The notes below the pieces were generated by a model. It was not told the origin of the DNA. It did no database searches and saw only the letters and a list, made by a program, of their open reading frames with translations. Positions 5,259 through 47,642 of a DNA stretch of 64,000 nt are shown here, piece by piece. Source of the stretch: an uncultured delta proteobacterium (GTDB lineage: Bacteria > Desulfobacterota > RBG-13-43-22). Position numbers and translations under genes: made by a program. The stretch lies in the NCBI GenBank assembly GCA_963790475.1, contig CAWBOS010000010.1, positions 832,001-896,000 on the forward strand, read 5' to 3'. How positions within the stretch are numbered: position 1 is the first letter of the stretch; each line of letters begins with the position of its first letter.

Positions 5259-5287
5259 TTGTCAAGATAATCCCTATCATTTATAAT
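5259..5287 (+). promoter_or_regulatory. Conserved 28/29-bp site, copy 1 (dif-like 11-6-11 / promoter / Fur-like)
   Basis: T-TGTCAAGATAA TCCCTA TCATTTATAAT; near-identical sites at 42976 and 47614. Confidence 0.75.
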
Positions 5288-5438
5288 AGGTTACAAAGAA
5301 TCTGAGGAGTTTACCAAACCTTTTGACATCTAAAACAGATAAATGAAAAAGTTTGCTTTCCCTAATTGAAGTGTTCGAATTGTAGGATTATACAGAAAAA
5401 AGTTAGAATTTTTTATTATACCTATATCAAGAGGTAAA

Positions 5439-5600
5439 ATGGAAAATAAGACTAAGCAGAAGACCCCACAATTTAATGATGCTCGCAGTAAAAAAGTAAT
5501 GATTGTAGCTCATTGCATTTTGAATCAAAACGCCCGGATATCTGATCTTAACCCTGATCGGGGTCTTGCTATAGTAAATGACTTGATTGCAGCTGATTAA
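5439..5600 (+). pseudogene. N-terminal fragment of a DUF523/TudS-related protein
   Basis: GAGG RBS then MENKTKQKTPQFNDARSKKVMIVAHCILNQNAR; homology appears to end after about 35 codons. Confidence 0.5.
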
Positions 5601-5665
5601 TAATGTTTCATCAGACTTGCAGAATGGGGTGACGTTGTAAGGTTTTTAACTTTCGCAACAGGATC

Positions 5666-5899
5666 ATGAGATATCCTGTAGCCTCGAACGTAGTAACCTT
5701 AAAACTTAACAGCGTCCACGGTTACACACTTGCGGCCCGGCTAATCCGGATAGTTGATGTATACGGGGCTTTGACGAGCAGTCGTCCTTACAGGCATGCA
5801 TTCATGCAGGCGAGGGTTCTTGAGATTATCCGTGACGAACGTCAGCACTTCGATCCGCAACTCCTTGACCCCTTCACCCAGATCATTTCTGCGGAGTAG
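5666..5899 (+). pseudogene. C-terminal fragment of an HD-GYP phosphodiesterase domain
   Basis: LAARLIRIVDVYGALTSSRPYR...HFDP; the HD and GYP motifs are absent. Confidence 0.7.
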
Positions 5900-6148
5900 T
5901 AGCGGAGTCGATGGACGAAAAAACACTGCGGGTCCAAGCTGCCGAAGCAAGAATAAAAGAGACGGTTCTCTTTAAGACGAAAGAATAAATAATCAGAACC
6001 GTCCTCTTTTATTTAGGGGACACTTTCCTATTTAATTTTCTTAAGTTGAAAAAATGAGTATGATGTCACCAGATTGTTGTTATGAAGAAAGTTGCGATGA
6101 GACTTTGAATCATGACTAAAGTTGTAATAAAAGTTTATAGAGGATGCA

Positions 6149-7696
6149 ATGGCACAAAAACAAGTTGGGGCACGGACGGAGGGCGATGTTTACCAAGGAT
6201 TATTCTTCTGGCGAAATGCCGCATCCCTGCTGATACCAGAATCACTTGTTATTAGAGTTGACATAGAGCATGACAAAGCTGATGGGGTTGATGATGTTGC
6301 AGTCTTCTATGATAGGCCGGGTATAAATGCTGGTGGGTGGCAATGCATGGCTGACTACTATCAACTAAAGTACCATGTTGACAAAAGGGATTCCTATAGT
6401 TCGGTTTCAATTATTGATCCTTCATTTATTAACGCAAAATCCTCATTACTACAGAGATTTCATAAAGCATACAGTAAGTTAAGTATTCTAGCAAATTCTT
6501 TCAGATTAAACTTGGTATCAAATTGGAGATGGCAAGACGATGATTACTTAGCTAAAATGCTCAGAGAATATGATGGTGCCTTACCCCAATCATTTTTTTC
6601 AAAGGAGCTAAAAAGTAAGTTGGGTGAAGTTCGAGAACAATGGCGCGAGCATCTTGAAATGGAGTCAAGCGATTTTGAAGTCTTTGCTAAAACATTGCGG
6701 TTCCAACTTGATCTTTTTGGCCGCCAATACTTCAAAGAATGGGTTAATGACCGATTAGCTCGTGTTGGTTTACGCACCCCATCTGCGGATCATGCTGCTA
6801 GTCCATATGAAAGTCTGGTTCAAAAGTTCTTAATGGATGGTCCAAATTCTTTCGATAGAGAAACCTTCAGCAAAATGTGCCATCGCGAAGGGCTTTTTGA
6901 TCCTAATGTTGTTACTACCCAAAATGATCATGATCCAGTAATCGGCATCAGGAGTTTCATTAGATTTGCAGAAAATATTGAAAACGAAGTAGATAGTTTC
7001 ATTTGTGTAAGTGATCTTTTCGAGGGACGACATCCAATTGATGATGAATCATGGAGAGTTGCTGCTTCAAGGATATTGTTGTTTCTATCTGACACTGCAT
7101 CGAAAAAAGCCTTACGATCAGAGGAGCATCGGCTATTACTCGAATGCCACGGATCACTAGCCCTTTTGGCTGGATACGAATTGAGCAGAAACTCAGGCAG
7201 TCGTGTATACCCCGTTCAAAAACCTAGAATGGAACTATGGAAACCAAGCTCCCAAATATCATTTACAACCCCATCAATACGTATTACTGAAAAAAGCTAT
7301 AAAGATGGTGGTGCTATCGCAATTTCACTTTCGCTTACACACGATATTATGAGGGACGTGGAAAACTATTTTCTTGAAGCCAAGATAAATATTGGCAAGC
7401 TTATTAACATTCAACCAATAGACGGTTCTAGCAGCGGGAGCATCAAAGGTGCCGATCAAGCTGTGCACATAGCAAACGATGTGGTAAGACTATTGCGAGA
7501 ATCAAGGTCCAAGGCATCAGATGTAATTCACGTATTCAGCAGTACTCCAAATTCTTTCATGTTTTTCCTTGGTCAGTATCGGCAGGCACTTGGACGTTTA
7601 CAGCTTTATGAATACGATTTCGGGTTTGAAAGAAACTGCTCCTATTCGCCAAGCATCCTGATACCCGACGATGTCAACCCAAACCATGGAGGGTAA
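6149..7696 (+). CDS. cap4: CBASS effector: Cap4-like endonuclease + SAVED domain
   Basis: N-terminal G..YQ, DDVAV and YQLK (restriction-like D...QxK); C-terminal SAVED signature IHVFSSTPNSFMFFLGQ...LYEY..Y.PS; directly upstream of a CD-NTase. Confidence 0.85.
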   Translation: MAQKQVGARTEGDVYQGLFFWRNAASLLIPESLVIRVDIEHDKADGVDDVAVFYDRPGINAGGWQCMADYYQLKYHVDKRDSYSSVSIIDPSFINAKSSLLQRFHKAYSKLSILANSFRLNLVSNWRWQDDDYLAKMLREYDGALPQSFFSKELKSKLGEVREQWREHLEMESSDFEVFAKTLRFQLDLFGRQYFKEWVNDRLARVGLRTPSADHAASPYESLVQKFLMDGPNSFDRETFSKMCHREGLFDPNVVTTQNDHDPVIGIRSFIRFAENIENEVDSFICVSDLFEGRHPIDDESWRVAASRILLFLSDTASKKALRSEEHRLLLECHGSLALLAGYELSRNSGSRVYPVQKPRMELWKPSSQISFTTPSIRITEKSYKDGGAIAISLSLTHDIMRDVENYFLEAKINIGKLINIQPIDGSSSGSIKGADQAVHIANDVVRLLRESRSKASDVIHVFSSTPNSFMFFLGQYRQALGRLQLYEYDFGFERNCSYSPSILIPDDVNPNHGG

Positions 7697-7699
7697 TAT

Positions 7700-8851
7700 A
7701 TGGAACTTCAAGCTGATTTCACGACTTTCCTCAGCGCGATTAGGCCAACTGAAAATCAGAGATCTGAATTACAAACAGGTCACACCACATTGAGATCAAG
7801 ACTAAAAAGTTATCAAGACCTTTCAAAGATTTTCGTAAGTGATTTTCTACAGGGAAGCTACCGCAGAGTAACCGCCATTCGGCCGAAAGGTGATAAGCGG
7901 TCTGACGTAGACATCATTGTAGTTACGAAATTGCATGAGGACGAATATACACCTGAAGCCGCAATGGACCTCTTTGCTCCTTTTCTTGATGAATACTATA
8001 AAGGCAAGTGGCAAAAACAAGGACGATCACTTGGAATTTCATTGTCATACGTAGATTTGGACCTTGTAATTACATCGGCCCCTTCTGAAGGTGAAATTGG
8101 TGTATTACAATCAGAATCTGTCACTTCAGAAGATGATATTGCCAAAGCTCAAGACTGGCGCTTGCACACCTCCTGGCTTTCATCGAATAGTAGGTTTTTG
8201 ACTGAGAACGCAGCACAACTAATAGAGAAGGCTAAATCGGAAAGTGAATGGAAGCTAACCCCCCTTCGTATTCCAAATCGTGATGCGGGATGTTGGGAAG
8301 ATACACATCCACTTATGCAAATCCAATGGACCAGGGATAAAAATGCATCCACAAACTATCACTTTGTTAATGTAGTCAAAGCGTTAAAATGGTGGAAGCT
8401 TGAAAATTACGATGAGGCCAAGCATCCGAAGGGTTTTACCCTGGAACGGATTATTGGCGACTGCTGTCCGGACGATATATCTTCTGTCTCCGAAGGCATA
8501 GTCCGGACCCTGGAAGGAATAGTGTCAAAATATCAGGTTCTTTCGATGACAAACTCCAAGCCAGTTCTTCCTGATTATGGAGTGCCAGGCCATGATGTTC
8601 TTAGTCGTCTTAGCGTCGAAGATTTTGCCACCTTCTACGATCAGGCCAAGGAAGGCGCCATAATCGCCAGACAGGCTTATGATTCATTGGATCGGACAGA
8701 AAGCGGCAATTTGTGGCGTAAACTGTTGGGCACTAAATTTCCTCCACCACCAGATAATGGGGGAAAAGCAAAGGCTGGCTATACCACGCCGGTCGCTGCC
8801 GCTGCGCCAGGAGGAGGTAGGTTCGCTTCAACAGGAGCGTGTCTTGACTGA
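7700..8851 (+). CDS. CBASS CD-NTase (cGAS/DncV-like, SMODS), CdnD-like
   Basis: FLQGSYRRVTAIRP, SDVDIIVV, LDLV, KALKWW, WRKLLGTKFP, C-terminal GGGRFA followed by a 7-aa tail. Confidence 0.93.
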   Translation: MELQADFTTFLSAIRPTENQRSELQTGHTTLRSRLKSYQDLSKIFVSDFLQGSYRRVTAIRPKGDKRSDVDIIVVTKLHEDEYTPEAAMDLFAPFLDEYYKGKWQKQGRSLGISLSYVDLDLVITSAPSEGEIGVLQSESVTSEDDIAKAQDWRLHTSWLSSNSRFLTENAAQLIEKAKSESEWKLTPLRIPNRDAGCWEDTHPLMQIQWTRDKNASTNYHFVNVVKALKWWKLENYDEAKHPKGFTLERIIGDCCPDDISSVSEGIVRTLEGIVSKYQVLSMTNSKPVLPDYGVPGHDVLSRLSVEDFATFYDQAKEGAIIARQAYDSLDRTESGNLWRKLLGTKFPPPPDNGGKAKAGYTTPVAAAAPGGGRFASTGACLD

Positions 8852-10697
8852 AGAAATACCGCCAAAGGCTATACATGTTGGTGTGCTCAATGCTCAAGCC
8901 ATTCCGGGTGCGGAATTTTTCGGGAAACCATTCTTTGAAAAATTCAAAGAGGTTTCTTTTTGGGCTTTTGCGCTTCGGCTCCACATAGGATCACACTCAG
9001 AATTTATTCCCCAGGCATCCGAATGGTACGCCCTTTTGGAGGATACCTACCCATTTGGAGACATAAGAATTTATCCATCTAAAACAAATGGGATTTCGGT
9101 CACATTTCCACACCAAGACCTCAATTCCTTTGGTAATGAGAAGCTTCCCTGGAGAGAAGGTAAACTTTGTCTCGATACCCCTGTTCAGAGACTTGGTAGA
9201 ATCGCAGGTGGAAAAGACCCGATTGGCGATTATGAGGAAAGGCTTCGATGGTATTTGACACGAGCACTTGCCTGGTTAGATTGTGCCGCCACTAATTCTT
9301 TAATGCAGGATGGTGATCCTTTTGAAATACCATATTATAGGGACTCGTCTCACCAACAGATAATTCATGACGAATCATTAGAAACCTTTCCCTTCTGGAA
9401 GCCCTACGCCGCTAGCTCCGTGGGTGTGGTGGTTTTTAATACGGTATCCAAGACGGATAACCGGGAATCGGTTGTCTGCTTTGAGACCATGAATGGAGCG
9501 CTGATCAGAAAGACTCGCTTCTTTTCTGAGGAAGCACATGGCCCGAAAAACCGCCGTCGGCATACTGGATTTTGGTGGTTATGGGGTGGACCTATTGTTC
9601 TTCTACCATGGAAGGCTCCAACAAACTGGGGAGAACTAAGGGCAGCTGGGAATCATCAAGGTATAAACGTTGACGAGATTCTAAAGGGCATTGCTCCTCT
9701 TGTTCGAGGAAAAGGGGCTACCACTCTTTTGGTCGGATACCCTATACCGCTCCTGTGCGGGGGGGAACCACTTGAGATTTATTGGCACGCCATCATGCTT
9801 CCACCCCTAATGTCTGCAAAGAAGCCACCAAAAGGTTTCAGGCCAACAGAAGGCAACTTTTGGGAAAGGGATCGTCTGCAAGCTTTTTTGGATCAAAAAG
9901 AGTTAGTATATCTGAAAACCGAAAATTGGCATCCGAGTAGAATGCAAGCGAGGGGGCGTTTCAGTCCTCAAATGTGTCAGTCGAAAGTCGGACTCATTGG
10001 ATGTGGCGCGTTAGGGTCCATAGTTGGTGAGCTTTTAGTCCGAGAAGGCATAAAAGATATAATACTCGTAGACAATAAACCGCTCGGCGCCCACAACCTT
10101 GTACGCCATACTCTTTACGGTGATGATATTGGAAAAAATAAAGCGAGTGCCTTGACTGACCGTCTTTCATCCGCTTACCCCTTTTCAAAAATTGTAGCTG
10201 TAAATAAATCCTTACCAATGGATGTTGATGAGCTTGAAGTTCTTCTCATGGATCGAAAAATAGTGATAGATTGTACCGGCAGCGATGCTGTCATTCAGGT
10301 TTTATCGAATGCTTGGTGGGAGATGCCTAGACTATTTGTATCAGCATCGGTTGGCTATAAAGCACTTCGCACTTTTATTTTTACATCTATATGCAATCAA
10401 TTTCCATCAGACCAATTTTTAACTTTATTAGAACCCTTTCTAAATGAAGAACGTAAGCTATGGGTAGAAGACGGTGAAACCTTAGAAGGCCCTGGTTGTT
10501 GGTCGCCTCTGTTTCCTGCGCGTTTCGATGACTTACTGCTTTCTGCAACTGCATGCATCAAAATAGTTGAGGAGTGTTTAATCAATTTCAATCCGGATAC
10601 CCAACTCATTGTTTTTGAGCAAACTTTTTCCGATGGGATATTTACTGGATTCAGTAGGAAGAATCACTCGCTCGAATCTGCGAAGGAGGACGAGTGA
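8844..10697 (+). CDS. cap2: CBASS Cap2 (E2-E1/ThiF fusion)
   Basis: E2-like FPHQ...GKLCL; ThiF GCGALGS, HNLVRH, IDCTG, GCWSP. Start placed at TTG 8844 behind AGGAG rather than at 8679. Confidence 0.88.
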   Translation: MTEEIPPKAIHVGVLNAQAIPGAEFFGKPFFEKFKEVSFWAFALRLHIGSHSEFIPQASEWYALLEDTYPFGDIRIYPSKTNGISVTFPHQDLNSFGNEKLPWREGKLCLDTPVQRLGRIAGGKDPIGDYEERLRWYLTRALAWLDCAATNSLMQDGDPFEIPYYRDSSHQQIIHDESLETFPFWKPYAASSVGVVVFNTVSKTDNRESVVCFETMNGALIRKTRFFSEEAHGPKNRRRHTGFWWLWGGPIVLLPWKAPTNWGELRAAGNHQGINVDEILKGIAPLVRGKGATTLLVGYPIPLLCGGEPLEIYWHAIMLPPLMSAKKPPKGFRPTEGNFWERDRLQAFLDQKELVYLKTENWHPSRMQARGRFSPQMCQSKVGLIGCGALGSIVGELLVREGIKDIILVDNKPLGAHNLVRHTLYGDDIGKNKASALTDRLSSAYPFSKIVAVNKSLPMDVDELEVLLMDRKIVIDCTGSDAVIQVLSNAWWEMPRLFVSASVGYKALRTFIFTSICNQFPSDQFLTLLEPFLNEERKLWVEDGETLEGPGCWSPLFPARFDDLLLSATACIKIVEECLINFNPDTQLIVFEQTFSDGIFTGFSRKNHSLESAKEDE

Positions 10698-11200
10698 TGC
10701 ATCTTGAATGGCGGACTGATTGTGGAAATTACGGGATGATAATCGAAAAGAGTTCTTGGGAAACTATTAAAATTGAGCGCGCTAAATCCATCAACCAAGA
10801 AACTGGTGGGATACTCATCGGCTACTATTCTGATAACAACCAAACCGCCATCGTTTGCGAAGCTACCCCACCCCCAAATGATTCTCAGAAGGGGAGTAAT
10901 TGGTTTTGGAGAGGCGTAACCGGCTTGCGATCACTCCTTCTTGACCGATGGAATCAGAATCAACGGACATATTATATTGGAGAATGGCATTACCATCCGA
11001 CCCAAATAATCGAGCCCAGCATAACCGATTTGAAGCAGATGATCGACATTAGCAAATCGAAGCCCTACCATTGCAGCGAGCCGATTCTTATCATTATTGG
11101 ATGTAGTATAAAAGTCGAAACGCCCGCCCGGGCCTTTGTCTTTCCTAACATCGCAAGGGGGGGCGGACCACGCCAATGGCTTGAATTTACAATGGTTTAA
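10694..11200 (+). CDS. cap3: CBASS Cap3 (JAB/MPN peptidase)
   Basis: ETGGILIG...YIGEWHYHP...PSITD JAMM motif; start overlaps the cap2 stop. Confidence 0.92.
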   Translation: MMHLEWRTDCGNYGMIIEKSSWETIKIERAKSINQETGGILIGYYSDNNQTAIVCEATPPPNDSQKGSNWFWRGVTGLRSLLLDRWNQNQRTYYIGEWHYHPTQIIEPSITDLKQMIDISKSKPYHCSEPILIIIGCSIKVETPARAFVFPNIARGGGPRQWLEFTMV

Positions 11201-11309
11201 AATGGGGTCTGATTACAGGAGTCGGAGCAGACGAAGGGATTGAATCCCTAATGAATTATATTCTAAAGCGGGGTCGGTCCACATTGGTTGATAGCCGAAA
11301 GGAACCAAA

Positions 11310-11714
11310 ATGCAAAGCGATAAATCGACAGCATCGGTCGAACAGCAAATCATCCAACTCGAAATGCAGGCGCTGCAGCGCTGGTGCAATGGGGATCCGT
11401 CCGGCTTCCTTGAGATATCCGCACCCGATGTTGTGTACTTCGATCCATTCCTGGAACGAAGGATTAACGGGATCGGAGCGCTGACCGAATATTACGAGAA
11501 CCTCCGGGGCAAGATCCGCGCCGATCATTTTGAATTGTTGAATCCGCTGGTGCAACGAGTTGGTTCTGCGGCGGTTCTCACCTTCAATTTTCTTTCGAGG
11601 GGACGGGACGGGGACGAGAACCGTTGGAACTGCACAGAAGTTTATCGCCAGAACGGGTCTCGCTGGGAAATCATTCAAACGCACTGGTCGTTCACTAAAG
11701 TCGCGACAGACTAA
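11310..11714 (+). CDS. NTF2/SnoaL-like (DUF4440-type) protein
   Basis: DVVYFDP...WNCTEVY...WEIIQTHWS. Confidence 0.8.
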   Translation: MQSDKSTASVEQQIIQLEMQALQRWCNGDPSGFLEISAPDVVYFDPFLERRINGIGALTEYYENLRGKIRADHFELLNPLVQRVGSAAVLTFNFLSRGRDGDENRWNCTEVYRQNGSRWEIIQTHWSFTKVATD

Positions 11715-11854
11715 GTTTAACAGCTTTAACTTTAACAGAGGTCTTCCTATTAAAAATGGGCCTCTTAGGGGACCTTTTATAGCGGGAGTAGATATTTGAA
11801 AAAAATCCGATATGAATTAGGGATCAATATTTTTAAACGAAAAGGAGAATTATC

Positions 11855-13285
11855 ATGGCTTTTCAGGAATACTCTTCTTATGATGGTCTCGGTTTGGGTG
11901 AACTCGTCCGGAAGGGTGAGGTAACCGCATCCGAGCTTCTGGAGGAGGCGATAGCCCGTGTGGAGCGCCACAACGGCAAGATCAATAGCATCATCTACAA
12001 ATTCTACGACCAGGCCCGCGAGGCTGCACGGAGGAAACCGGGTCACGGCCCTTTCGAGGGCGTCCCCTTCCTCCTCAAAGACATATTAGGCGATTGCGAG
12101 GGGGTGCCGACGCGCTTTGGGAGTTGTTACTTCCCTTCCTTTCCTTCACCAATCGACTCCGAACTGGTAGCCAGGTACAAGCGTGCCGGGCTGATCCCCT
12201 TCGCCAAGACCAACGCCCCGGAGTTCGGCCTCCCTCCCATGACCGAGCCCCAACTTTACGGGCCAGCCCGAAATCCCTGGAACACTGATTACACCCCGGG
12301 AGGTTCGAGCGGAGGGTCGGCTGCGGCTGTAGCTGCCGGGATCGTTCCACTCGCCCATGGCAACGACGGAGGGGGCTCGATCCGAATCCCGGCCGCCTGC
12401 TGCGGTCTGGTCGGTCTCAAACCGACGCGCGGTCGAAATTCGCTTGCCCCGAATCTCGGAGAGATGGCGGGCGGATTGGCCTGCGAGCACGTCTTAAGCC
12501 GAAGTGTGCGGGACAGCGCTGCGGCGCTCGACGCCACCGAGGGACATGTGGCCGGCGACCCATATTCTGCCCCGCCCAAAAAGGCTCCCTACATCCAAGA
12601 GGTCAGGACCGATCCCGGGCGTCTGAAGATCGCCTTCTGGGAAGGCGGGACCCAGGGCGAGTCTCTTCACGAGGAGGCTGTTAAAGCTGTTCGTGGGGCG
12701 GCCAGGCTTTGTTCCGAGCTCGGCCACGAAGTGGAGGAAACCGGACCGACGATCAACGATGATGGAGCGGCCTCCGCATTCATCACGATCTACGCCGCCG
12801 GTCTCGCCTCAACCGTTGAGGTCTTGAAACAGATCACCGGCGTGCCGCCAACCTTGGAAAATCTGGAGAGCCTGACGTTAAATTTTTACGAGATGGGAAG
12901 AAAGATTACCGCCACCCAGTACCTGATGGCGGTTGCCTTACTGCAACGTCTATCCAGGCAGTTTGCCGCCTTCTTCGAGAGGTACGACATATTGATTACC
13001 CCGACCCTTGGATGCCCGCCTTTAAAGGTAGGGACCATCGATTTTCAAAGTCCGTCAGCTTCCATGGAGGACCAGAGGATCGCGGTTTTCGCCCACACCA
13101 ACCCACTTTATAACATCTCCGGCCAGCCCGCCATATCGCTCCCTCTCCACTGGACCGCCGAAGGACTGCCGCTCGGGGTACTCTTCGGCGGAAAGTATGG
13201 GGACGAGGCAACTCTTTTCAGGCTTGCCGGACAGATTGAACAGGCCCGGCCGTGGAGGGACCGGCATCCTTCAGTCTGGGAATAG
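11855..13285 (+). CDS. Amidase signature family enzyme
   Basis: [32 protein letters not shown]. Confidence 0.95.
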
Positions 13286-13353
13286 AGAAAGGCGGGGCGG
13301 ATTTTTGCGCATTCTGTTAAGGACCTAATAAGAAAAGAAGGAGGGATTGAACA

Positions 13354-14238
13354 ATGCCAAATATTAAAGCCAATGGGATCCGGATTGAGTACGATACCTT
13401 TGGTGACCGTATTTCTCCACCTCTCTTGCTCATCAGGGGATTAGGGACCCAGATGACTGACTGGGAAGAGGACTTTTGCAACCTGCTGGCGGATAAAGGT
13501 CTTTTTGTTATCCGGTTCGACAACCGGGATGTCGGCCTTTCCCAAAAATTTGAAGAATACGGGGTTCCCGATATTATGGCGGCATTAACTGCATCTATGC
13601 AAGGGAAAGAGATTCAAGCCCCGTACAGCCTCGATGATATGGCTGATGATGCCATCGGCTTACTCGATGCCTTGGAAATTAAAAAGGCCCATATCTTTGG
13701 AATTTCAATGGGCTCGGCCATAACTCAAATAATAGGCTATAGGCACCCTTCAAGGGTTCTGAGCCTGATTCCAGTAATGGGTTCCACTGGTAATCCCGAT
13801 CTTCCTCCTGCCAAGCCAGAGGCCTGGGAAGTACTTCTTTCCCCTGCGCCAAAGCAACGGGATGCCTATATTGAACATTACCGAAGAGGGCAAAAGGTAA
13901 TTTGGGGCAATTTACCCTATGATGAAGATGATATAAATAAGAGAGCCGAAGTTTCTTACGAAAGGTCAAATTATCCCCAGGGGGTAGCACGTCAGCTTGT
14001 GGCTACTATCGCCAACGGAAATCGAAAGCCCCGTCTTGCTTCCATAACTGCTCCCACACTGGTAATCCATGGCGCAGAAGATCCGCTTATCCCCTTTGCG
14101 GGGGGAATGGACACAGCCAAAGCCATTCCCGGAGCCGATCTATTGAAAATTGAAGGGATGGGTCACTGTCTTCCAAGAGCGGCCTGGCCCCAAATTGTGG
14201 GGGCCATCGCAACGCTGACGAACAGAGTATCAGTTTAG
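13354..14238 (+). CDS. Alpha/beta hydrolase
   Basis: RFDNRDVG, GISMG nucleophile elbow, HGAEDPL, GMGH. Confidence 0.93.
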   Translation: MPNIKANGIRIEYDTFGDRISPPLLLIRGLGTQMTDWEEDFCNLLADKGLFVIRFDNRDVGLSQKFEEYGVPDIMAALTASMQGKEIQAPYSLDDMADDAIGLLDALEIKKAHIFGISMGSAITQIIGYRHPSRVLSLIPVMGSTGNPDLPPAKPEAWEVLLSPAPKQRDAYIEHYRRGQKVIWGNLPYDEDDINKRAEVSYERSNYPQGVARQLVATIANGNRKPRLASITAPTLVIHGAEDPLIPFAGGMDTAKAIPGADLLKIEGMGHCLPRAAWPQIVGAIATLTNRVSV

Positions 14239-37544: not shown

Positions 37545-37558
37545 AGGAGGGAAAAAAT

Positions 37559-39397: not shown

Positions 39398-39481
39398 ATA
39401 ACTGAATATCTATGTACGCTAAATAAAAGCGCATCGACAAAGTTTTGTCGATCTTTCGGGGACCAGGAAATCCCTTTGCCC

Positions 39482-39560
39482 GTCACCCCGGCGAAAGCCG
39501 GGGTCCAGGAGCGCCTTTGACGGAATAAATTCTCTGGATTCCGGCTTTCGCCGGAATGAC
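39482..39560. repeat. REP-like double-hairpin repeat, copy 4
   Basis: Same arms as copy 3; lies between convergent genes. Confidence 0.85.
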
Positions 39561-39753
39561 AGGAAGAGGACTCCAAGTTTTTAAGTCAACTGCTCAGTTT
39601 GGAGCCGCCTCTTGCAGGGAAACTCTCGGACGGGGCGTAGATCCTAACTCCAGAACTCAGAGAATTCATCTTTAAGTTGCGACTCTAAAGTCCAAGGGGG
39701 GTCAAGGAAAGGGGAATCTTTTAATCACTCGAATCCTTGACCCCCTCATTCCT

Positions 39754-41277
39754 TTATTGACTAATCCCTTCCCCGCAGGCCCGGCCTCTCAAATGAAAGA
39801 AAAAGTGAAGCCCTTTCTTGACCTTTTCTGATAAAAACTTTTTGGACACAAAATCTCCGGCCACTTTTTTATTGATTTCCCCCAAGGTCGGGTAGGGGTG
39901 AACGGCCATGGCCAGGGTGGAAAGCTTAGTTTGGCCATTCAGGACCGCCACCCATTCGTTCATCAATTCACCGCCCCCCGGCCCTAAAATTTGTATACCT
40001 AAAGGTTTATCCTTTTCATCCAGCAGCATTTTTATTTTTCCGATAGATTCACCTTGGGCCAGACTTCGATCGTTATTTTTGAATTCTTCGGTCCAGACCG
40101 AATATTTGATTCCCGCCTTCTGCGCTTCCTTTTCATTCAGGCCGATGCCGGCCAGTTCCGGATCGGTATAGGTACACCAGGGAAGATAGGTATAATCCGT
40201 CTTTCGGGGTAAGTGAAGAATCGCATTACTGAGGACAATGCCCGCCTCATAGCCGGCGGCATGGGTAAACTGGTATTCCCCCGTCACATCCCCGGCCCCA
40301 TAGATATGAGTGTGATTGGTCCTTAAACGTTGGTCCAGCTTCAGCCCCTTGGAGTCAAAAGTCAGACCGATGGTATCCAGACCTAATCCACCCAGGTTGG
40401 CCTCCCGGCCCATGGCCACCAGAAGGGTCTCGGCTCGAAGGGTCAGGGTCCGGTCCTGTTCTATCTTAACCACCTCATCCGGCCACATTTTGGACAACAT
40501 TTTCTTGGTCTGATTCGGATCAATCCTGAGAAATACGACCCGTTCCTGACCCAGATCCTCAGTCCGAAGGATCGAGGTGTTCAGGAAAAAAAACACCCCT
40601 TCTTTTTCCAGAACCTGCATCACCTGGTCGGCCATATCCTTATCTTCCCTGGTCAGGACCTGGGGACCTCGATGGACGACGAAAACCCTGGTTCCCAGGC
40701 GGGAGAAGGCCTGAGCCATTTCAATGGCCACCGGGCCGGCCCCCAGGATAATCATGGATCGGGGGAGTTTGGGCAAAGAAAAAAGATCTCTGTTGGTAAT
40801 AAAGGTAGTTTTAGACAATCCTTCAAGAGGAGGGACAGCCGGAGAAGATCCGGTGGCAATCACCCAGTTCTTGGCGGTGATCGAATTTCCATTCAGGCGG
40901 ACCGTATTTAGATCCAAAAATTCAGCTTGACCAAATAGGACTTTGACCCCTAAGGAGCAAAAACGTTTCTCGGAGTCATGCTCCTGGATTATCTCGATAA
41001 CCGATTGAATCCTTTGCGCCACCTGATCGAAAGACACCGGAGGGACGTTCACTGCCGGCAAACCAAAAGTTTTGGACTGCTTAAGGAGATGATACACCTG
41101 GGCGGTTCGTATCAGGGTTTTGCTGGGTACACAGCCGAAGTGGAGACAATCGCCACCCAGGTTTTCTTCTTTTTCGATCAGCAGGGTTTTGGCCCCCAAT
41201 TGGGCCGCTCCGGCTGCGACGCTCAATCCAGCCGAACCCCCGCCGAGTATACCAAGATCAAAATCATACTGGATCAT
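39754..41277 (-). CDS. Pyridine nucleotide-disulfide oxidoreductase (dihydrolipoamide dehydrogenase/MerA-like)
   Basis: GGGSAG, GGDCLHFGCVPSK, GAGDV, HPYPTLGE. Confidence 0.92.
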   Translation of the reverse strand: MIQYDFDLGILGGGSAGLSVAAGAAQLGAKTLLIEKEENLGGDCLHFGCVPSKTLIRTAQVYHLLKQSKTFGLPAVNVPPVSFDQVAQRIQSVIEIIQEHDSEKRFCSLGVKVLFGQAEFLDLNTVRLNGNSITAKNWVIATGSSPAVPPLEGLSKTTFITNRDLFSLPKLPRSMIILGAGPVAIEMAQAFSRLGTRVFVVHRGPQVLTREDKDMADQVMQVLEKEGVFFFLNTSILRTEDLGQERVVFLRIDPNQTKKMLSKMWPDEVVKIEQDRTLTLRAETLLVAMGREANLGGLGLDTIGLTFDSKGLKLDQRLRTNHTHIYGAGDVTGEYQFTHAAGYEAGIVLSNAILHLPRKTDYTYLPWCTYTDPELAGIGLNEKEAQKAGIKYSVWTEEFKNNDRSLAQGESIGKIKMLLDEKDKPLGIQILGPGGGELMNEWVAVLNGQTKLSTLAMAVHPYPTLGEINKKVAGDFVSKKFLSEKVKKGLHFFFHLRGRACGEGISQ

Positions 41278-41765
41278 TCAATCCTCCTGAATTTTTCTTT
41301 TTTGGCCCCGCAGACCGGACATTGATCGGGCAGATGGTCTTCTTCGAAGACATATCCGCAGATCTGGCAGACATGATAAGGAAGGTGTTTATCCGAGAGC
41401 ATGGCCGTCAAAGCGTCTTTATATAATAGGGCATGCCGTTCTTCCACGTCGCGGGAACGGATAAAACTCCAGGCCAAATCTTCACGTTTAAGGGCCAAGG
41501 CTTCTTTGATGAATTCCGGGTAAAAATCGGTTTTAGCCCGGATTTCATTTTCAAAGGCCGCTTTCAGGTTGTCTTCTGTCTTTCCAACGACCCCTTCAAG
41601 ATATTTGAGGTATTCCTCGGCATGGACCTTCTCGGCCTCAGCCACGGCCCGAAATAACCGGGCGATCTGGGAATAGCCCTCCTTCTCGGCCTGCCCTGCA
41701 TAAGCCATATTCCGGATATAGGCCTTGGATTCTCCGGCAAAGGCCTCCCGGAGCCGTTTTTCCAA
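41274..41765 (-). CDS. Rubrerythrin family protein
   Basis: AFAGESKA, EKVHA, EERHA, CQICGY...CPVCG; start codon uncertain. Confidence 0.88.
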   Translation of the reverse strand: MEKRLREAFAGESKAYIRNMAYAGQAEKEGYSQIARLFRAVAEAEKVHAEEYLKYLEGVVGKTEDNLKAAFENEIRAKTDFYPEFIKEALALKREDLAWSFIRSRDVEERHALLYKDALTAMLSDKHLPYHVCQICGYVFEEDHLPDQCPVCGAKKEKFRRIE

Positions 41766-42003
41766 ATCCTGGGGAAGCTCTTCATATCAAGGACAATCCG
41801 CCAAAAATAGCGGCGGATCGTCCTTGATCAGATTAGCCCTGCTTAGCATAAAAATATTCGCGATAGCCTTGTCTGTAATTCCCGGCAGTTCTCTCCTTTG
41901 TTAGGATATCTTAGGCAGCCAGGCCTTGGCCGGAAAAAAGTCTGTATCTGACCGTGAGAGTCCGTGGCAAAGAAAGTTTTTGACTTACCTGGTTAATAAT
42001 CTA

Positions 42004-42327
42004 TCATTTTAACGCTTCCATGGAAATACAGGAATGGGCAAAAGAGGCCCCGGCATTCATGGCTACGGCCACAAAAACCACCTCAGCGATTTCCGCATCT
42101 GTGGCCCCCAGCTGTTTGGCCTTCTTGGTGTGACCGTCTATGCAATAGGGGCAGCGGGTAATGTGGGCGCAGGCCACGGCCACCAATTCCTTCATTTTAC
42201 CGGGCAGGGCACCGTCATCAAAGACTTTCTGGTTAAAGGTTAAAAATGAAGTAAAGAGATCCGGGTTGAGTTCCATCAATTTTTGAAAATTTTTCACGCC
42301 TTCCTTGTTGTAATAACTTTCACTCAT
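42004..42327 (-). CDS. Carboxymuconolactone decarboxylase / AhpD-like protein
   Basis: KELVAVA..HITRCPYCIDGH. Confidence 0.9.
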   Translation of the reverse strand: MSESYYNKEGVKNFQKLMELNPDLFTSFLTFNQKVFDDGALPGKMKELVAVACAHITRCPYCIDGHTKKAKQLGATDAEIAEVVFVAVAMNAGASFAHSCISMEALK

Positions 42328-42347
42328 CGGGCATTTCCTCCTTAGGT

Positions 42348-42764
42348 TTATTCGCCTATGATTTTTACCAAAACTCGTTTCTTTCTTCTTCCGTCAAATT
42401 CTCCGTAAAAGATTTGTTCCCAGGGACCGAAATCCAACTTCCCTTTGGTCACGGCAACCACCACTTCCCGGCCCATGACCTGGCGTTTCAAGTGGGCATC
42501 GGCATTGTCTTCCCCTACATTATGGCGATACCCGGAAACCGGCTCATGGGGGGCCAGTTTTTCAAGCCAGCGGTCATAATCCTGGTGAAGCCCTGATTCG
42601 TCGTCGTTGATAAAAACGGAAGCGGTGATGTGCATGGCATTGACTAAAACCAGCCCTTCGCTGATGCCGCTTTCTCTCAGGCATTCTTCCACCTGGGAGG
42701 TGATATTGATAAAGGCCCGGCGGGTCGGCACCTGATACCATAGTTCCTTACGATAACTTTTCAC
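42348..42764 (-). CDS. yjbQ: YjbQ (secondary thiamine-phosphate synthase) family protein
   Basis: [30 protein letters not shown]. Confidence 0.9.
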
Positions 42765-42975
42765 CTTGATTCCTCATCTCTCTTTAAAGAAAAGGACGTT
42801 CTGCGACAACCTCCTGACTTCCGGACGGTGTCCTTTAGCAGCCGGTGCAGCGCCTTCCCGGCAATCTTTTCTATCATACCTGAATAGCCATCGGAATACA
42901 TCAGCTTTTTTTGATCTTACCAAGCAGGACTGATATCTATAAAAGGTCAAATAAATCTTGATGTCAGTAATTAAT

Positions 42976-43004
42976 TTGTCAAGATAATATTTATCATTTA
43001 TAAT
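42976..43004 (+). promoter_or_regulatory. Conserved 28/29-bp site, copy 2
   Basis: T-TGTCAAGATAA TATTTA TCATTTATAAT, followed by AATAACTTGTTAGGC. Confidence 0.75.
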
Positions 43005-43048
43005 CAGAATAACTTGTTAGGCCTGAAGTATCAGCAGGGGAGGGTGTC

Positions 43049-43327
43049 TTGAAGCGTTTCGGTCTCGGCTTGCTCTGTGGGCTCGGTGGCTATCTTATCG
43101 TCGCCGTCGTAAGCTATTTTGCCATACTGCAGTTTTCGCCGAACAGGCATGACCGTGAACTCGAGGCGGCGATGACGAGCGTTTTCTTCATTGGACCTAT
43201 TGGAGCAGTCCTCTCATTCATACTCGGCGATTCTTATCGACGGTTTTTGAATTCAGAACGAAGTTTTTTAACAAGAAAGGTGAAGGTGAAACATGTTTAT
43301 CGTTATTATCTCTTTCCCACCCATTAA
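43049..43327 (+). CDS. Small two-TM membrane protein with chimeric C-terminus
   Basis: KRFGLGLLCGLGGY...NRHDRELEAAMTSVFF; diverges from the 47868 copy after LSFI. Confidence 0.65.
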   Translation: MKRFGLGLLCGLGGYLIVAVVSYFAILQFSPNRHDRELEAAMTSVFFIGPIGAVLSFILGDSYRRFLNSERSFLTRKVKVKHVYRYYLFPTH

Positions 43328-43583
43328 GGAAGGCAGGGATGCCGATTTCCAAAGATGGTTTGCCTCTTCAAACCAAGCGTTCGGCAACTTTAGTGGCTTT
43401 ATAAGCAGAAGACTTCTGAAGCCTGTAAATGGAGGGAACTACGCGGCTATAGTTGAATTCAAGGATCAAGCTGCATTCCAAGCAATGCATAGCAGTGCTA
43501 CCCATGATGCAGAGGGCGACCAAGTGAGACCTCTCTTTGATGGTAAACCCACGCCGACATTCTACCAAGTTATTGGTGGATAG
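43293..43583 (+). CDS. Antibiotic biosynthesis monooxygenase (ABM) domain protein
   Basis: GFISRRLLKP...F..MHSS..H; 96 aa. Confidence 0.8.
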   Translation: MFIVIISFPPIKEGRDADFQRWFASSNQAFGNFSGFISRRLLKPVNGGNYAAIVEFKDQAAFQAMHSSATHDAEGDQVRPLFDGKPTPTFYQVIGG

Positions 43584-43633
43584 TTTGGACGCAATATGGC
43601 AGCTCTCGTAGAGTGGGACGGGGAATTGCAAGC

Positions 43634-43671
43634 TGGTGTGGGAGGGGGGAAAAACACTCCCGTTACCCGAT
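43634..43671 (+). mobile_element. 3' end remnant (domain VI) of a group II intron
   Basis: TGGTGTGGGAGGGGGG...CTCCCGTTACCCGAT. Confidence 0.55.
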
Positions 43672-43699
43672 TAGCGTCCTCATTCAGATAATAGTGTGA

Positions 43700-44050
43700 T
43701 AAAGTCAGGAGAACACACAATCTTACCCACAAGATTCTGAACTGCCGGCATCAAAGCCTTGAGCGGTCTGAGTACAAGCCACATTTCCGGCAAAGCTTGT
43801 TTCCTAAGAATAATCCTCTGTGACCACCATGAACTTCCCGTTTGAGGACTTGATTGTCATTGCCAAATTCGATCTACCTTCATTCGTATCGAAGTCTATT
43901 TGATCAAGATTTCCGGTGAAGGTAACTGGAGCGGTAGCAGAGAAAGCATTTGCCAATTTGAGTTCATCTAAGAGTGCCTTTCGGATGAATTCCGAAAAAG
44001 ACGCACCATCAGGAGTTTTTATTGGTCCGAATTTAATGTTTTTTTTTGGG
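43700..44050 (-). pseudogene. Fragment of a putative lipoprotein-like gene
   Basis: GPIKTPDGASFSEFIRKALLDELKLA...EDYS*ETSFAGNVAC with an internal stop and no start. Confidence 0.45.
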
Positions 44051-44082
44051 TAAGGCCTACGAATAGAAAAACTGAATAATTT

Positions 44083-44766
44083 CTAACTAAACCTTATCCG
44101 GTTTATATCCTGATTGAATTCAATGGCAAACTTGTCAAATGCTTTATTAAGCATATCAAGGTTTAGAGGAAGCGGAGTGGCTCGGGAAGGCCTTTTCATT
44201 TCCCTTACATCAACATCATAAACCTTATGAAAAATATACTTTTCATCTCTGTCTAGGATAGAAACCTCTACCTTCATGATCCCATGGAATTCGGATTTTG
44301 CTGCGGGAGCAAGCAATGGACCTATAATTGGGAAAGCAAAAATTTCATTAGGTTTAACTGTTGGATACCATGCCTTCAGCTTGAGTTCTGCCTTGTTACC
44401 TTGAGGGTTGTCCCCGAACTGTTTCAAGACCATTTTTTGGAAGACATCAAAAAGGGAAGAATCATATGCCGGATCTCCCAATGTAACTGTCGGTAATACA
44501 TACTGAACTACAAACTTCTTCTCAGTCTTAAATCTATCATCTCTTTCATCAAGGAAGACAAAGTTAATATTGCTATTCTTTTCAACTCTTGCCTGATTTT
44601 CTATTAATAGCCCCGTCTTACGATAGTTGTCGTGAGCACATCCCCAGGTTCCCAAAACCAGAAGCGGGAGAAAGATAGAAACAGAGTATTTGACCAGAAA
44701 ATTATATTTATTCAGAAAATATTTTATGGATCCCATCAATTTTCTCCCTGTGTAGCTTTTTTGCAA
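44083..44766 (-). CDS. Hypothetical lipoprotein
   Basis: Hydrophobic stretch followed by a TWGC lipobox-like motif. Confidence 0.65.
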   Translation of the reverse strand: MQKSYTGRKLMGSIKYFLNKYNFLVKYSVSIFLPLLVLGTWGCAHDNYRKTGLLIENQARVEKNSNINFVFLDERDDRFKTEKKFVVQYVLPTVTLGDPAYDSSLFDVFQKMVLKQFGDNPQGNKAELKLKAWYPTVKPNEIFAFPIIGPLLAPAAKSEFHGIMKVEVSILDRDEKYIFHKVYDVDVREMKRPSRATPLPLNLDMLNKAFDKFAIEFNQDINRIRFS

Positions 44767-45234
44767 TAACGATCTTTACGCCCTTTTACAATACCAATAG
44801 AATATATGGTGGTATTTTGGACTTTAATTTAACCATTAATGTGGTCTTTGTCAAATAAACCAAGATTTTTGGAATGGTATTGAAAAATAGGTAATGATTA
44901 TTTTTATAAAGGAGGGGAGAATAATATATCCCAATGCTAAATATCGTTAAGATGTTGTCTTTCTAGAGGTAGAATTATAGGTCTTTCAAATACCTAGGTG
45001 CAGGACTTTCACAGCTTATGGTACGTTGATGATACTTGTTACGGTCAATTTTCTTCAGACAGGGGGAAAGGGGGAAGCAAGAAGCTCGATTAGATGGCCC
45101 TTTCTTGCTAATATTTATTCATCTAGACATATTTTTTCTATTGGTCCAAGCAATACCAGTCAGAGTAAGGGAGAGAAAATTTTAATTGAAAACCTGCTCT
45201 CTGCTGTCATGATTTTAATTGTCTTAACCATTAG

Positions 45235-46137
45235 CTATGGCATTTGGGTACGAGGATACTGATGCCATTTACGATAGATATATCGAAAAGCCACATTCCT
45301 GGAGTACTTTGCCTCAGTGGTAGGCTTATAGTCCGGCCCTTCAAGATTTCCGATGACCTTTTGGATAATATCGGCACCGATTATTTTCACAGAGGCATTA
45401 TAACCGTTAAAAAGGGCATTATCGCAGATGTTGTTGATCTGCCTGGGGATTCCTTCAGCCTTTTCAACTATCAGGGAAATGGCCTGGGGGGAAAAAATTT
45501 CACTCGAATACTTTCCGACCCTTCTCAGTCGATGCTCGATATAATCCAGCGATTCTTTCGCTGACAGAGATTTGATCTTTATCCCCAGAGGGGTCTTCTG
45601 GAGCCGGTTCCTATAAAAAGCGGCAACGTAGGTTTCCTCAAGCTCTGGCTGCCCAACTAGGACAATCTGGAGGGTTTCGGAAATCCAGGGTTCCAATTCG
45701 AAGAGGTGGAACAGATCCTCGACCACATCCTTTGGGAGTAAATGGGCTTCATCGATCAGGACGGCCAGTAACTCCCCCTGCTCCCTGATCTCTCTCAAAT
45801 AAACCAAGAATGGCTTTTTGAGTTCTTGGGTCTCTTCAAAAGCTGTTGGTTCTCCCAACTCAAATAAGATCTGTTGGAGCAATTCGTTAAATGCGTAAGT
45901 GGAATGGAAAATAAAAGCCGTTTTTACTTTTTGGGGGAGCCTCTCCATGACCTCGTGAATCAACATGGTTTTCCCTGTTCCAACTTCGCCTATAAGGACC
46001 ATCAACCCCTTTCTTTCATTTATTCCTCTTAATATAGTCTCCAGGGCCATCTTGTAACTCCTGGTCAGATAAAGAAACGTGAGGTCTGGCGATAATTCGA
46101 AAGGTTTATCCGAAAAACCATAAAAGTCTAATAGCAT
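45235..46137 (-). CDS. ExeA/GspA-like AAA ATPase
   Basis: FYGFSDKPFELSPD, GEVGTGKT, IDEAH, LVGQPEL, GIPRQIN. Confidence 0.9.
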   Translation of the reverse strand: MLLDFYGFSDKPFELSPDLTFLYLTRSYKMALETILRGINERKGLMVLIGEVGTGKTMLIHEVMERLPQKVKTAFIFHSTYAFNELLQQILFELGEPTAFEETQELKKPFLVYLREIREQGELLAVLIDEAHLLPKDVVEDLFHLFELEPWISETLQIVLVGQPELEETYVAAFYRNRLQKTPLGIKIKSLSAKESLDYIEHRLRRVGKYSSEIFSPQAISLIVEKAEGIPRQINNICDNALFNGYNASVKIIGADIIQKVIGNLEGPDYKPTTEAKYSRNVAFRYIYRKWHQYPRTQMP

Positions 46138-46896
46138 GAAATATCATCCTTTGTTTTTTACACCCATGTTATCAAATGATATGGGCTCTTTTTTCAAAAA
46201 CAGCCTGCCGATTGTGAGGGATTTAGATCGGGCGGTCAGACTATTGATAATTCAAGTTTTCATGTATCCTTAACTTCAGGGAAAAATGAATGGGACAAGA
46301 AAAGATTTATGAAGCTTCTTCTTTTCTTCACGCAAAAGATGTGCCGTTTTTTTATTTTTTATATCTCAATGAAATAAAAAAGTTTTTATAAGACAGAGGA
46401 TTTTTGGAAAGGGTCAAATGATTGAGTTTTCCTACAGAAGTCAGAAAGGAAATGCATGATATTTCATACATGCTTCTAGTAACCTGAATTTTTCTCGATA
46501 AATCTTTCTTCGATCTCTCGAAACAATCCCCTTTAACCGAACTGTGAGACACTACAAGCATAGGTCGATCATTGAGACTGCTCTGTCTGCGTTCAAGAGA
46601 TGGAAGAGCTTAAAATCGATTATTTTCAATTAAACCTATCCCTTAAAACCAAAGGTCATTTCTTCCCAAAAAATAAGACAAATTAAAAGAAAATCGATTT
46701 ATTTTTTATGAAAAAAAGGCTGATAATGGGTTGTTAATTTTATTAGCAGTCCAATGACAGTCTTTCATCGTTTATTTATCGTTTGTGATGTGGTCGAGTC
46801 CTGATCCTCTACCAGCTTCAGAGCCATGATACGAACCATATCGTGATAGCGAGTACCGGACATTGTAAAAATGGAATTCATACCCTTTAATATTTA

Positions 46897-47277
46897 TTAA
46901 TTGTTCTTACCGCTAATCGGCAAGGATCGGATACGAAGGCGGGATTGTTCAAAGACTACGACGCTTCCTTGCTCTAAAGCCTCTAATAATATATCTAAAT
47001 TTCTTTGGAGAAGTGTGATTTGATCCTCGGGTCGTCTTTCTGTTCCACGCCGAAATAAAATCACCGATGGTTTGTTTTCCTGACGAAGAGCCAATAAGGT
47101 GGAAAAGTCGGTATCGGCTGAAATAATCACACGATCTTCAGCATACGCCAGTGAGAAAATTGCTTCGTCTTCTGCTGCTTGCATCCCCAAGTCACGCACA
47201 TGGACGGCATCATATCCTTGTTGGCGCAAGGCCTTGGCTACTATGGGGGAGAGAGCGTTGTCTATCAGGAATTTCAT
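46897..47277 (-). CDS. DUF5615 PIN-like toxin (VapC45-like)
   Basis: [24 protein letters not shown]. Confidence 0.88.
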
Positions 47278-47504
47278 GAAGCCATCAATAAAGGCAATTC
47301 ACGCTCCCGAACAGCTTCAGCCGCGTAACGCAATGATTCCTGAATATCTTCAGGCTCCAAATCAGGAAAGGCTTGAAGAATTTCTTCTGTTCCCATCCCT
47401 TCGGCGACCATTCCAACTACAGTTGCCACAGGGATTCGAAGCCCGCGAAGACAAGGAATCCCCCCCATTTGAGCAGGATTAACCGTAATTCGTCTGAATG
47501 CCAT
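47274..47504 (-). CDS. DUF433 antitoxin
   Basis: [22 protein letters not shown]...[10 protein letters not shown]. Confidence 0.92.
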
Positions 47505-47613
47505 TTTCTACCTCCCAGGACTATTTGGTTAAGATTATACCTGATTAGCCGGTGGAATACATCAGTTTTTTTGACCCTGCTGATTCAGAGTTGGAGTGCA
47601 AAGGCTTAAAATA

Positions 47614-47642
47614 TTGTCAAGGTAATCTTTATCATTTATAAT
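47614..47642 (+). promoter_or_regulatory. Conserved 28/29-bp site, copy 3
   Basis: T-TGTCAAGGTAA TCTTTA TCATTTATAAT, followed by GGTAACTGGATTGTTAGAG. Confidence 0.75.

Follow-up and report, generated by a model that had tools for sequence, protein, structure and literature searches.

Integrons are catalogued by their integrase together with attC sites, and CALIN (clusters of attC sites lacking integron integrases) are, by the IntegronFinder definition, attC clusters with neither attI nor the integrase gene intI. The other side of the platform, formed by attI and the cassette promoter (Pc), is described in detail for a few classes only and is assumed to be single-copy. The subject of this report is a 28-bp site that occurs three times in a 64,000-nt stretch of DNA, hereafter called the window, from an uncultured delta proteobacterium (GTDB lineage Desulfobacterota, RBG-13-43-22; assembly GCA_963790475.1, contig CAWBOS010000010.1, positions 832,001 to 896,000, forward strand). 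An initial annotation made from the sequence alone had described the site as serving both as a tyrosine-recombinase target and as a promoter for captured genes, within a dispersed gene-capture platform. The promoter and the platform proved largely right; the 28 bp as the recombinase target did not. The site is the head of a module of approximately 170 bp, and this module is probably the orphaned half, comprising Pc and an attI-like end, of a lineage-specific integron platform that includes an uncatalogued structured leader.

Scanning the window with the pattern proposed in the initial annotation (up to three mismatches) gave exactly three matches, at 5260-5287, 42977-43004 and 47615-47642 (copies 1, 2 and 3), all on the plus strand and in agreement with the printed sequences; none of 100 dinucleotide-preserving shuffles of the window contained a match. 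As had been described, the arms vary at one position only, copy 3 having G for A. The central six bases read TCCCTA in copy 1, TATTTA in copy 2 and TCTTTA in copy 3, so the variation noted there does exist among the window copies, but it does not extend to the genome, where TATTTA is present in 12 of 17 sites. These 17 sites, found in the assembly to which the window belongs (G000: 6.34 Mb, 20 contigs, 100% complete and 9.7% contaminated by the tool's figures), lie within five substitutions of the 29-mer TTGTCAAGATAATATTTATCATTTATAAT. Two are exact, a reversed-pattern control found no site in G000, and each of the 17 is oriented toward its own downstream genes. The copies had also been said to sit where leftward genes give way to rightward ones, which is true of copies 2 and 3, preceded on the minus strand by a UPF0047 gene and by a DUF433/PIN-like pair (46897-47504), respectively, but not of copy 1, since the HigB/HigA pair closest to it on the upstream side (4223-4797) points rightward. 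Both pairs, HigB-like/HTH on the plus strand and PIN-like DUF5615/DUF433 on the minus strand, are of the toxin-antitoxin kind.

The 28 bp form a near-consensus sigma-70 promoter, in which TTGTCA and TATAAT are separated by 17 bp. Each window copy agrees with the consensus at 11 of 12 positions and is the top sigma-70-type match of the region scanned, which supports the promoter reading and suggests that the site is active in transcription. In all copies it points toward the cargo, as a Pc would. The spacer contains a dyad, GATAA-TAT-TTATC, with a 3-bp centre; the six exact copies of its 13-nt core in G000 all lie within this promoter context (6/6), and the dyad may be the binding site of a repressor. 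On the opposite strand, the -35 region spells a perfect TTGACA in all module copies; in copy 1 it is combined with TAAACT at a spacing of 16 bp (window 5238-5265, minus strand, 10 of 12 positions). This TTGACA could be part of a divergent integrase promoter in the copies that are linked to an integrase.

Homology among the copies runs well beyond the promoter, from about 8 bp 5' of the -35 to about 130 nt 3' of the -10, so that its edges lie elsewhere than at the limits of the 28 bp, which argues against the latter as the recombination target. On the left, eight A-rich bases (AAAATAAT) are conserved with frequencies of 0.56-0.92 over 63 distinct instances, and conservation further upstream is weak in the same set (at most 0.68). 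This left edge is constant in all copies and abuts, depending on the copy, an intact spacer, codon 28 of intI, internal positions of intI or unrelated genes. On the right, the distance from the -10 to a motif ending in ...CTTTAGAATAACTTGTT is 124-135 nt in 29 of 29 instances from G000 and its relatives, the middle of the leader being highly diverged, and in most copies such a leader follows the promoter and terminates with ...TTAGAATAACTTG and then TT. A hidden Markov model (HMM) of promoter plus leader retrieved 12-13 near-full-length copies in G000. The last ~60 nt of the module (the 3' motif) occur 26 times, with the promoter within 200 nt in 9 of the 26 and absent in the other 17 by a test that allowed substitutions only. 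The inventory of G000 therefore amounts to about 12 full modules, about 5 promoters alone and about 15 more instances of the 3' part alone.

Two clusters of copies were observed. At G000:C12:1521463-1524080 (plus strand), three full modules stand in tandem within 2.6 kb, each heading one to three small genes: a ParE-like pair, a zinc-ribbon open reading frame (ORF) and unknowns, with a HicA/HicB-like pair thereafter. At G000:C13:504516-510498 (minus strand), four 3'-motif copies in the same orientation are spread over 6 kb and interspersed with genes and a single canonical 70-nt attC. Another conserved 5' part is common to two of the four, which would be members of a second element family with the same end.

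The leader has no counterpart in Rfam 15: no match was obtained at the gathering threshold for nine sources, and at E values up to 1 no family matched a leader at eight loci. RNAalifold predicted zero pairs from a plain MAFFT alignment of 30 leaders, and only a weak outer stem from a 10-sequence subset. A structure was drawn by hand on an 11-sequence seed (A4) and converted into an Infernal covariance model (R1), to which 47 matches (42 distinct) were then realigned. In that alignment the two sides of hairpin H2 both change in 10 of 10 pairs. The covariation score of the whole structure is 0.176, as compared with 0.142 ± 0.007 for shuffles (0 of 500 reach the observed value) and at most 0.105 with slid partners, in an alignment which, being fitted to the R1 model, favours the drawn structure. 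The other helices are less telling. The end-closing stem AGGTTA/TAACTT is mostly invariant or G-U and carries little information; helix H3, treated as fixed columns, is poor (48% paired), single-sequence folds showing a variable GC hairpin at this place; and P1b, the second outer helix, breaks down in one subfamily, its first pair being unpaired in 25 of 40 cells. The many G-U pairs favour a fold of the sense strand, as it would form in the transcript. According to the model, then, the leader folds on the sense strand with at least one covarying hairpin, and it may have a role as RNA.

Several other identities were considered for the leader and rejected: a leader peptide, as no ORF is conserved across the leader alignment; a retron non-coding RNA, as no reverse transcriptase was found by Pfam among the downstream genes; a tRNA or known ribozyme, in view of the Rfam searches; and an additional sigma-70 promoter within the 3' motif, as the would-be -35 is not conserved and pairs in H3.

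What ties the module to integrons is its position in related genomes. Among the 21 genomes that make up the class (the same 21 as for the order), six have matches to the integron integrase profile TIGR02249 above its cut-off, at eight loci in all. In five related genomes (G001, G002, G004, G007 and G102) the module adjoins an integrase. At G001:C166, G002:C47 and G004:C14, module and integrase stand back-to-back and divergent, and the intervening spacer is conserved; the G001 integrase, a 491-residue protein with a SAM-like domain from residue 180, has its start codon 77 nt from the -35. At G007:C174, the left edge of the module abuts an intI truncated at its 5' end, some 20-30 codons into the coding sequence. 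At G102:C19, in another family, the module lies beside an integrase and is followed by an array whose three canonical attC sites are 95, 59 and 80 nt long. The same association recurs in metagenomes, where 9 of 22 contigs with an exact 29-mer have IntI or its remnants directly upstream: four have an N-terminus starting 78 nt upstream of the module (three of these integrases being full length), two retain the first 28 codons only, and three carry internal or C-terminal fragments. A tenth contig has only 40 nt of upstream sequence, which match one of the intI fragment types. At L134, a metagenome locus with an intact integrase, a 59-nt attC lies 1.8 kb downstream. G000 itself keeps a trace of this arrangement: upstream of copy S6 (C6:809187-809215, minus strand), the ~100-bp intI-side spacer is preserved as far as the place of the start codon, where homology stops. 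A further copy of the leader is found 6 kb downstream in the same orientation, as is a canonical 57-nt attC.

Two features of the integrase side may be mentioned here. The module-linked integrases are 465-491 residues long (for example L111:1495-2970, minus strand), with an N-terminal extension of ~150-180 residues that has no Pfam match. The spacer between integrase and module (L111:2975-3040 and homologues) contains a long dyad, ..CTGTATATCAT..ATGATATA(C)AG, which is kept in five sequences including that of S6 and could act as operator of the promoter of the integrase.

The second line of evidence concerns the right end of the module. Up to and including ...AACTTGTT, conservation amounts to 0.88 or more, and right behind it the value drops to 0.3-0.6; in the alignment, GTT is absent from some leader copies. 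At two 3'-motif copies of G000 (in C6 and C13), the junction 7-mer, which starts at the final G, has as its exact reverse complement (7 of 7 positions) the first box of the attC that comes next downstream, which is the relation expected of an inserted cassette. Together, the drop in conservation and the match to the attC box make G/TT at the end of the leader (the slash marks the junction) the candidate crossover point. Recombination would accordingly occur some 130 nt away from the 28-bp site, except in copy 2, where this point would lie directly after the -10. Three G000 copies are followed by attC sites, at C6:802643-802699, C10:1797497-1797562 and C13:509314-509383. The element TAAC...GTTAG that the initial annotation had pointed out behind copies 2 and 3, as resembling an attI core, fits this scheme: it corresponds to the conserved end of the module, which in the relatives adjoins intI and precedes attC cassettes. 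The sequence reads ..AATAACTTGTTAGG.. at 43009-43022 after copy 2, whose attI-like core is fused directly to the -10 (CAGAATAACTTGTTAGGCC), and ..GTAACTGGATTGTTAGAG.. after copy 3. The leader end, ..AAC-TT-GTT.., may also resemble the simple site of class 1 attI.

Other hairpins are met near such junctions. The junction of copy S12 (L025:3153-3259; G000:C10:~1797000-1797106) is followed by a hairpin-forming, GC-rich dispersed repeat of ~105 nt that is present in many genomes without the module. In several relatives, similar GC-rich hairpins come after ...AACTTG and, with GAATAAC as their first box, make up attC-like structures.

The family is present in most genomes of the class. A scan with up to three mismatches detected the 29-mer in the genus itself (12 of 13 other genomes) and in a second genus (3 of 4 genomes); two further genera of the family (3 genomes) and other families (20 genomes) gave no match. 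Exact public matches amount to 15 loci, all in metagenome-assembled genomes labelled Thermodesulfobacteriota, delta proteobacterium, Desulfobacterales or Desulfomonile tiedjei. A leader model (R2) matches 17 of the 21 class genomes, with 1-13 matches per genome and 83 in total. It matches 3 of 136 genomes sampled from other families of the phylum, two of these three having a related yet diverged promoter. A search of titles and abstracts for integrons in Desulfomonile returned nothing relevant.

Genes behind the module vary from copy to copy and, at the same locus, from species to species. Cargo was surveyed with Pfam on 100 ORFs around the 17 G000 sites and on 37 ORFs behind modules in relatives. 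Directly behind the G000 sites are toxin-antitoxin genes (BrnT/BrnA, ParE-like, HicA), nucleases and an NTPase (Mrr nucleases, an SNase-like nuclease, an nSTAND3 NTPase), together with a DUF6036 nucleotidyltransferase, DUF1003 (twice), GH57, ABM monooxygenases and several unknowns; cargo in the relatives includes AbiEii-like, AbiTii, CopG, BrnT, ParE, HicB, NYN, methyltransferase and HAD proteins, among others. A UPF0047 flank, that of copy 2, is common to six species, and in three of them (G000, G011 and G012) the module lies ~80-130 bp beyond it; the genes behind the module differ by species, and the common right flank reappears in G011. At an SDR locus (copy S12 of G000), G000 and G004 have the module, G012 has a decayed form of it, and the cargo is again different. 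At both orthologous loci (2/2), therefore, the species share the module and differ in what follows, which upholds the proposal that the site heads variable accessory tracts. G012 lacks the 4.6-kb segment that separates copies 2 and 3 in G000. The duplication on its flanks takes in a 39-nt stretch situated 65-104 bp upstream of the promoter. As the duplication reaches well upstream, a homologous or duplicative rearrangement is favoured over an exchange at the 28-bp site.

In the scheme that seems most probable to me, the module (8 A-rich bp, the 29-bp promoter and the ~130-nt leader) would be the cassette-side half of an integron platform, its promoter being Pc and its end attI-like. In the relatives, a divergent intI stands on one side, with cassettes bearing canonical attC sites after the terminal G/TT. 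In G000, intI would have been lost from the platform and the module would survive as orphan copies, expected to transcribe whatever follows them, mostly toxin-antitoxin, anti-phage and small accessory genes.

A number of observations weigh against this scheme. G000 has no integron integrase, as the initial annotation had surmised for its platform: the best TIGR02249 score is 105 bits against a cut-off of 265, and tblastn with the IntI of a relative retrieved generic recombinases (25-30% identity) and one 70-residue fragment (40%, in C15), none of them near a module. Any recombination role in G000 is therefore either historical or dependent on a recombinase acting in trans. A second type of integrase (type B, 54-59% identical; G009:C5, G004:C29 and G007:C210) has no module upstream, though one of the three loci has only ~300 bp of upstream sequence. 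Pairing between junction and attC rests on few cases, two with 4 of 4 and two with 3 of 4 variable positions; one of the latter, S2, falls within a GNAT ORF and is likely to be spurious, several of the 10 candidates listed are not real junctions, and 6 of 90 mismatched control pairs also reach 4 of 4. Within 4 kb downstream, attC-like hairpins are not enriched (6 of 35 G000 modules versus 15 of 120 random windows) by a rule that is crude (complementary 7-mers ending in AAC and starting with GTT, a single hairpin, an energy cut-off) and unspecific (1718 raw matches genome-wide). The same crude scan found no convincing attC behind the three window copies. The methyltransferase/GNAT cluster behind S2 is free of attC in its intergenic gaps. 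Finally, promoters without a leader and 3' motifs without this promoter both occur, so that the two are separable elements, a situation that also fits a plain regulatory module.

Such a module, specific to the lineage and devoid of any role in recombination, is the competitor that fares best, although I consider it appreciably less probable than an integron origin. It would consist of a strong promoter, controlled by a repressor at the spacer dyad, and a cis-acting RNA in the 5' untranslated region (UTR), spread by duplication to positions ahead of accessory genes, which the integron merely uses to express its cassettes. The promoter-only copies (S1, S4, S8, S10, S15 and S16) and the 3' motifs without promoter are as expected of two separable parts, hairpin covariation and G-U pairs indicate a function at the RNA level, canonical attC cassettes are missing behind most G000 copies, and the same locus is kept across species, as would be the case for a stable regulatory element. 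What this explanation leaves aside is the recurrent, tight linkage of the module to intI or its remnants, at varied stages of decay, in the five genomes and nine contigs described above, as well as the fact that conservation ends exactly at G/TT, with the perfect attC-box matches of two copies.

It is less probable still that the module, alone or with its cargo, is itself mobile, either as an ORF-less cassette bearing a promoter or as a small non-autonomous element, with its left end ~8 bp upstream of the -35 and its right end at ...AACTTG. The constancy of the left edge against varied neighbouring sequences speaks for it. So does a resemblance between the two ends: the left edge plus -35 (16 nt, AAAATAATTTGTCAAG) and the leader end (AGAATAACTTGTTAGG) agree in 12 of 16 nucleotides, the four mismatches being transitions without exception. 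This likeness may be the trace of a duplicated core site, and by a rough estimate its significance is borderline in such AT-rich sequence. Against mobility, neither terminal inverted repeats nor target duplications were seen, an attC-like hairpin is found directly upstream of only 1 of 52 modules, and the module is stable across species at two loci.

A Fur regulon, the alternative that the initial annotation had raised against its own proposal, is very unlikely. In this case the spacer dyad would be a Fur box and the copies ordinary Fur-repressed promoters, and the dyad region is indeed within two mismatches of the 15-nt "7-1-7" Fur consensus in six promoter copies. Iron-uptake families are nevertheless absent by Pfam from the 100 ORFs of G000 and from the 37 of the relatives, and the fur-feoB promoter of G000 has a different Fur box, of the classical tandem-hexamer type; a Fur regulon would also leave the ~130-nt homologous leader and the intI linkage unexplained. 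Fur, or another repressor, could still act on Pc. In the fur-feoB operon itself (G000:C12:340147-340506 and 339650-340051, minus strand), the classical box overlaps a TTGACA-N17-TATAAT promoter. As for an XerCD/dif-like (pdif-type) 11-6-11 site at the 28 bp themselves, it is hardly credible: the length and a left arm ending in ATAA suit the parse of the initial annotation, but the right arm begins with TCAT instead of TTAT, the 3-bp centre of the dyad is too short for the overlap region of a tyrosine recombinase, the supposed spacer is conserved in most copies (the 12 of 17 given above), the copies all face their cargo instead of bracketing modules as inverted pairs, and the repeats around the 4.6-kb segment reach ~100 bp past the site.

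The features of the window copies and of their surroundings are collected in Table 1.

Table 1. Module copies, cargo and flanking features in the window
Feature	Position	Strand	Remarks
Promoter, copy 1	5259..5287	+	TTGTCA-17-TATAAT, 11/12; spacer dyad degraded to GATAATCCCTATC
Leader, copy 1 (full length)	5288..5417	+	R2 E=2.4e-8 (G000:C10:837288-837417); R1 E=0.043-0.065
Cargo, copy 1	6149..11197	+	CBASS-type operon: SAVED-domain protein, SMODS cyclase, ThiF/E1-like, JAB (Pfam)
UPF0047 conserved flank gene	42348..42764	-	Marks the orthologous locus in six species
Repeat D2, 39 nt	42873..42911	+	In the UPF0047 intergenic region upstream of copy 2; also at the orthologous G012 site
Promoter, copy 2	42976..43004	+	Identical to the 29-nt family consensus
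Leader remnant, copy 2 (last ~17 nt)	43005..43023	+	CAGAATAACTTG/TTAGGCC
Cargo, copy 2	43049..43583	+	92-aa ORF and ABM monooxygenase; 97% duplicate of 49767-50328
Repeat D2, second copy	47534..47572	+	85% identical to 42873..42911
Promoter, copy 3	47614..47642	+	GGTAATCTTTATC in spacer
Leader, copy 3 (diverged, non-canonical)	47643..47729	+	GGGTAACTGGATTGTTAGAG..., orthologous to that of G012
Cargo, copy 3	47730..50328	+	112-aa ORF, zinc alcohol dehydrogenase, lectin-like ORF, 101-aa ORF, ABM monooxygenase

The leader of copy 1 is decayed at its 3' end (..AGTTAGAATTTTTTATTAT) and has lost the AACTTGTT core in the alignment; copy 3 is matched by the promoter-plus-leader HMM at model positions 1-81 only. 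Between copy 1 and the CBASS (cyclic oligonucleotide-based antiphage signalling system) operon lie a 53-residue ORF (5439-5600) and an HD-domain fragment (5666-5899), and the cyclase ORF (7700-8851) overlaps the next one (8679-10697). Elsewhere in the window, a group II intron domain is matched at 62192-62368 (plus strand; RF02001, 62.3 bits, E=1.1e-9). A dispersed repeat of ~80-130 nt with the palindrome ..GGATTCCGGCTTTCGCCGGAATGAC.., which is not a tRNA, is found at 39432-39561 (plus strand); every genome of the genus has dozens of matches to it with 75-90% identity, and a similar palindrome lies upstream of fur.

A bolder interpretation, which I put forward as tentative and less likely than not, is that these modules belong to a distinct class of Thermodesulfobacteriota integrons, characterized by an external, near-consensus Pc with an operator-like dyad, by a ~130-nt structured leader and by multiplied stand-alone pads. 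A dozen or more such landing-and-expression pads per genome might then still be targets of an integrase acting in trans, supplied by another replicon or a co-resident integron, which would allow a dispersed capture of defence and toxin-antitoxin genes; the leader might serve the captured genes as a common regulatory or stabilising 5' UTR. If orphan pads do serve an integrase in trans, gene capture would extend beyond a single array for each integron. If they no longer do, they still illustrate how decaying integrons can leave strong promoters and a common 5' UTR scattered over a genome. In both cases, the presumed attI/Pc side is here a recognisable module of ~170 bp that contains a covarying leader absent from Rfam, has multiplied and outlives the integrase at many loci heading variable defence and toxin-antitoxin genes. 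Relics of this kind can thus be searched for by a simple sequence, and the leader is a candidate for a new cis-acting RNA.

Comparison with known systems places the module as follows. With XerCD dif/pdif sites it shares the length of 28 bp, the AT-richness and the association with accessory genes, but it has no 6-bp overlap between symmetric inner arms and coincides with -35 and -10 hexamers. Like Fur-regulated promoters, including the fur-feoB promoter of the same genome, it has an AT-rich dyad between -35 and -10; unlike them, it has another box sequence, no iron genes downstream and a long homologous leader. The cis-regulatory leader RNAs of Rfam resemble it in being covarying 5' leaders of constant length ahead of coding genes, the differences being that no family matches and that the downstream genes have no common function. 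CALIN and In0 elements are, similarly, integron-derived pieces that persist without the complete platform; in contrast to CALIN, it is the promoter/attI-like side that survives here, usually with no detectable attC. To the integron platform itself, whether class 1 or sedentary chromosomal, the likeness lies, in the relatives, in a divergent integrase above the TIGR02249 cut-off, a putative outward promoter that would face the array, a conserved region that ends at G/TT and gives way to variable sequence, and, in at least two cases, canonical attC cassettes downstream. The cargo agrees as well, since chromosomal integron cargo is reported to be rich in toxin-antitoxin and defence genes, as here (PMC13108822; bioRxiv 10.1101/2024.07.02.601686). 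The platform nonetheless departs from the known ones: the promoter/attI-like module is present in multiple copies, with up to 13 leader matches per genome, mostly without an adjacent integrase; the module-linked integrase has an N-terminal extension of ~170 residues; and the putative Pc lies outside intI, ~130 nt before the junction, with the covarying leader between the two.

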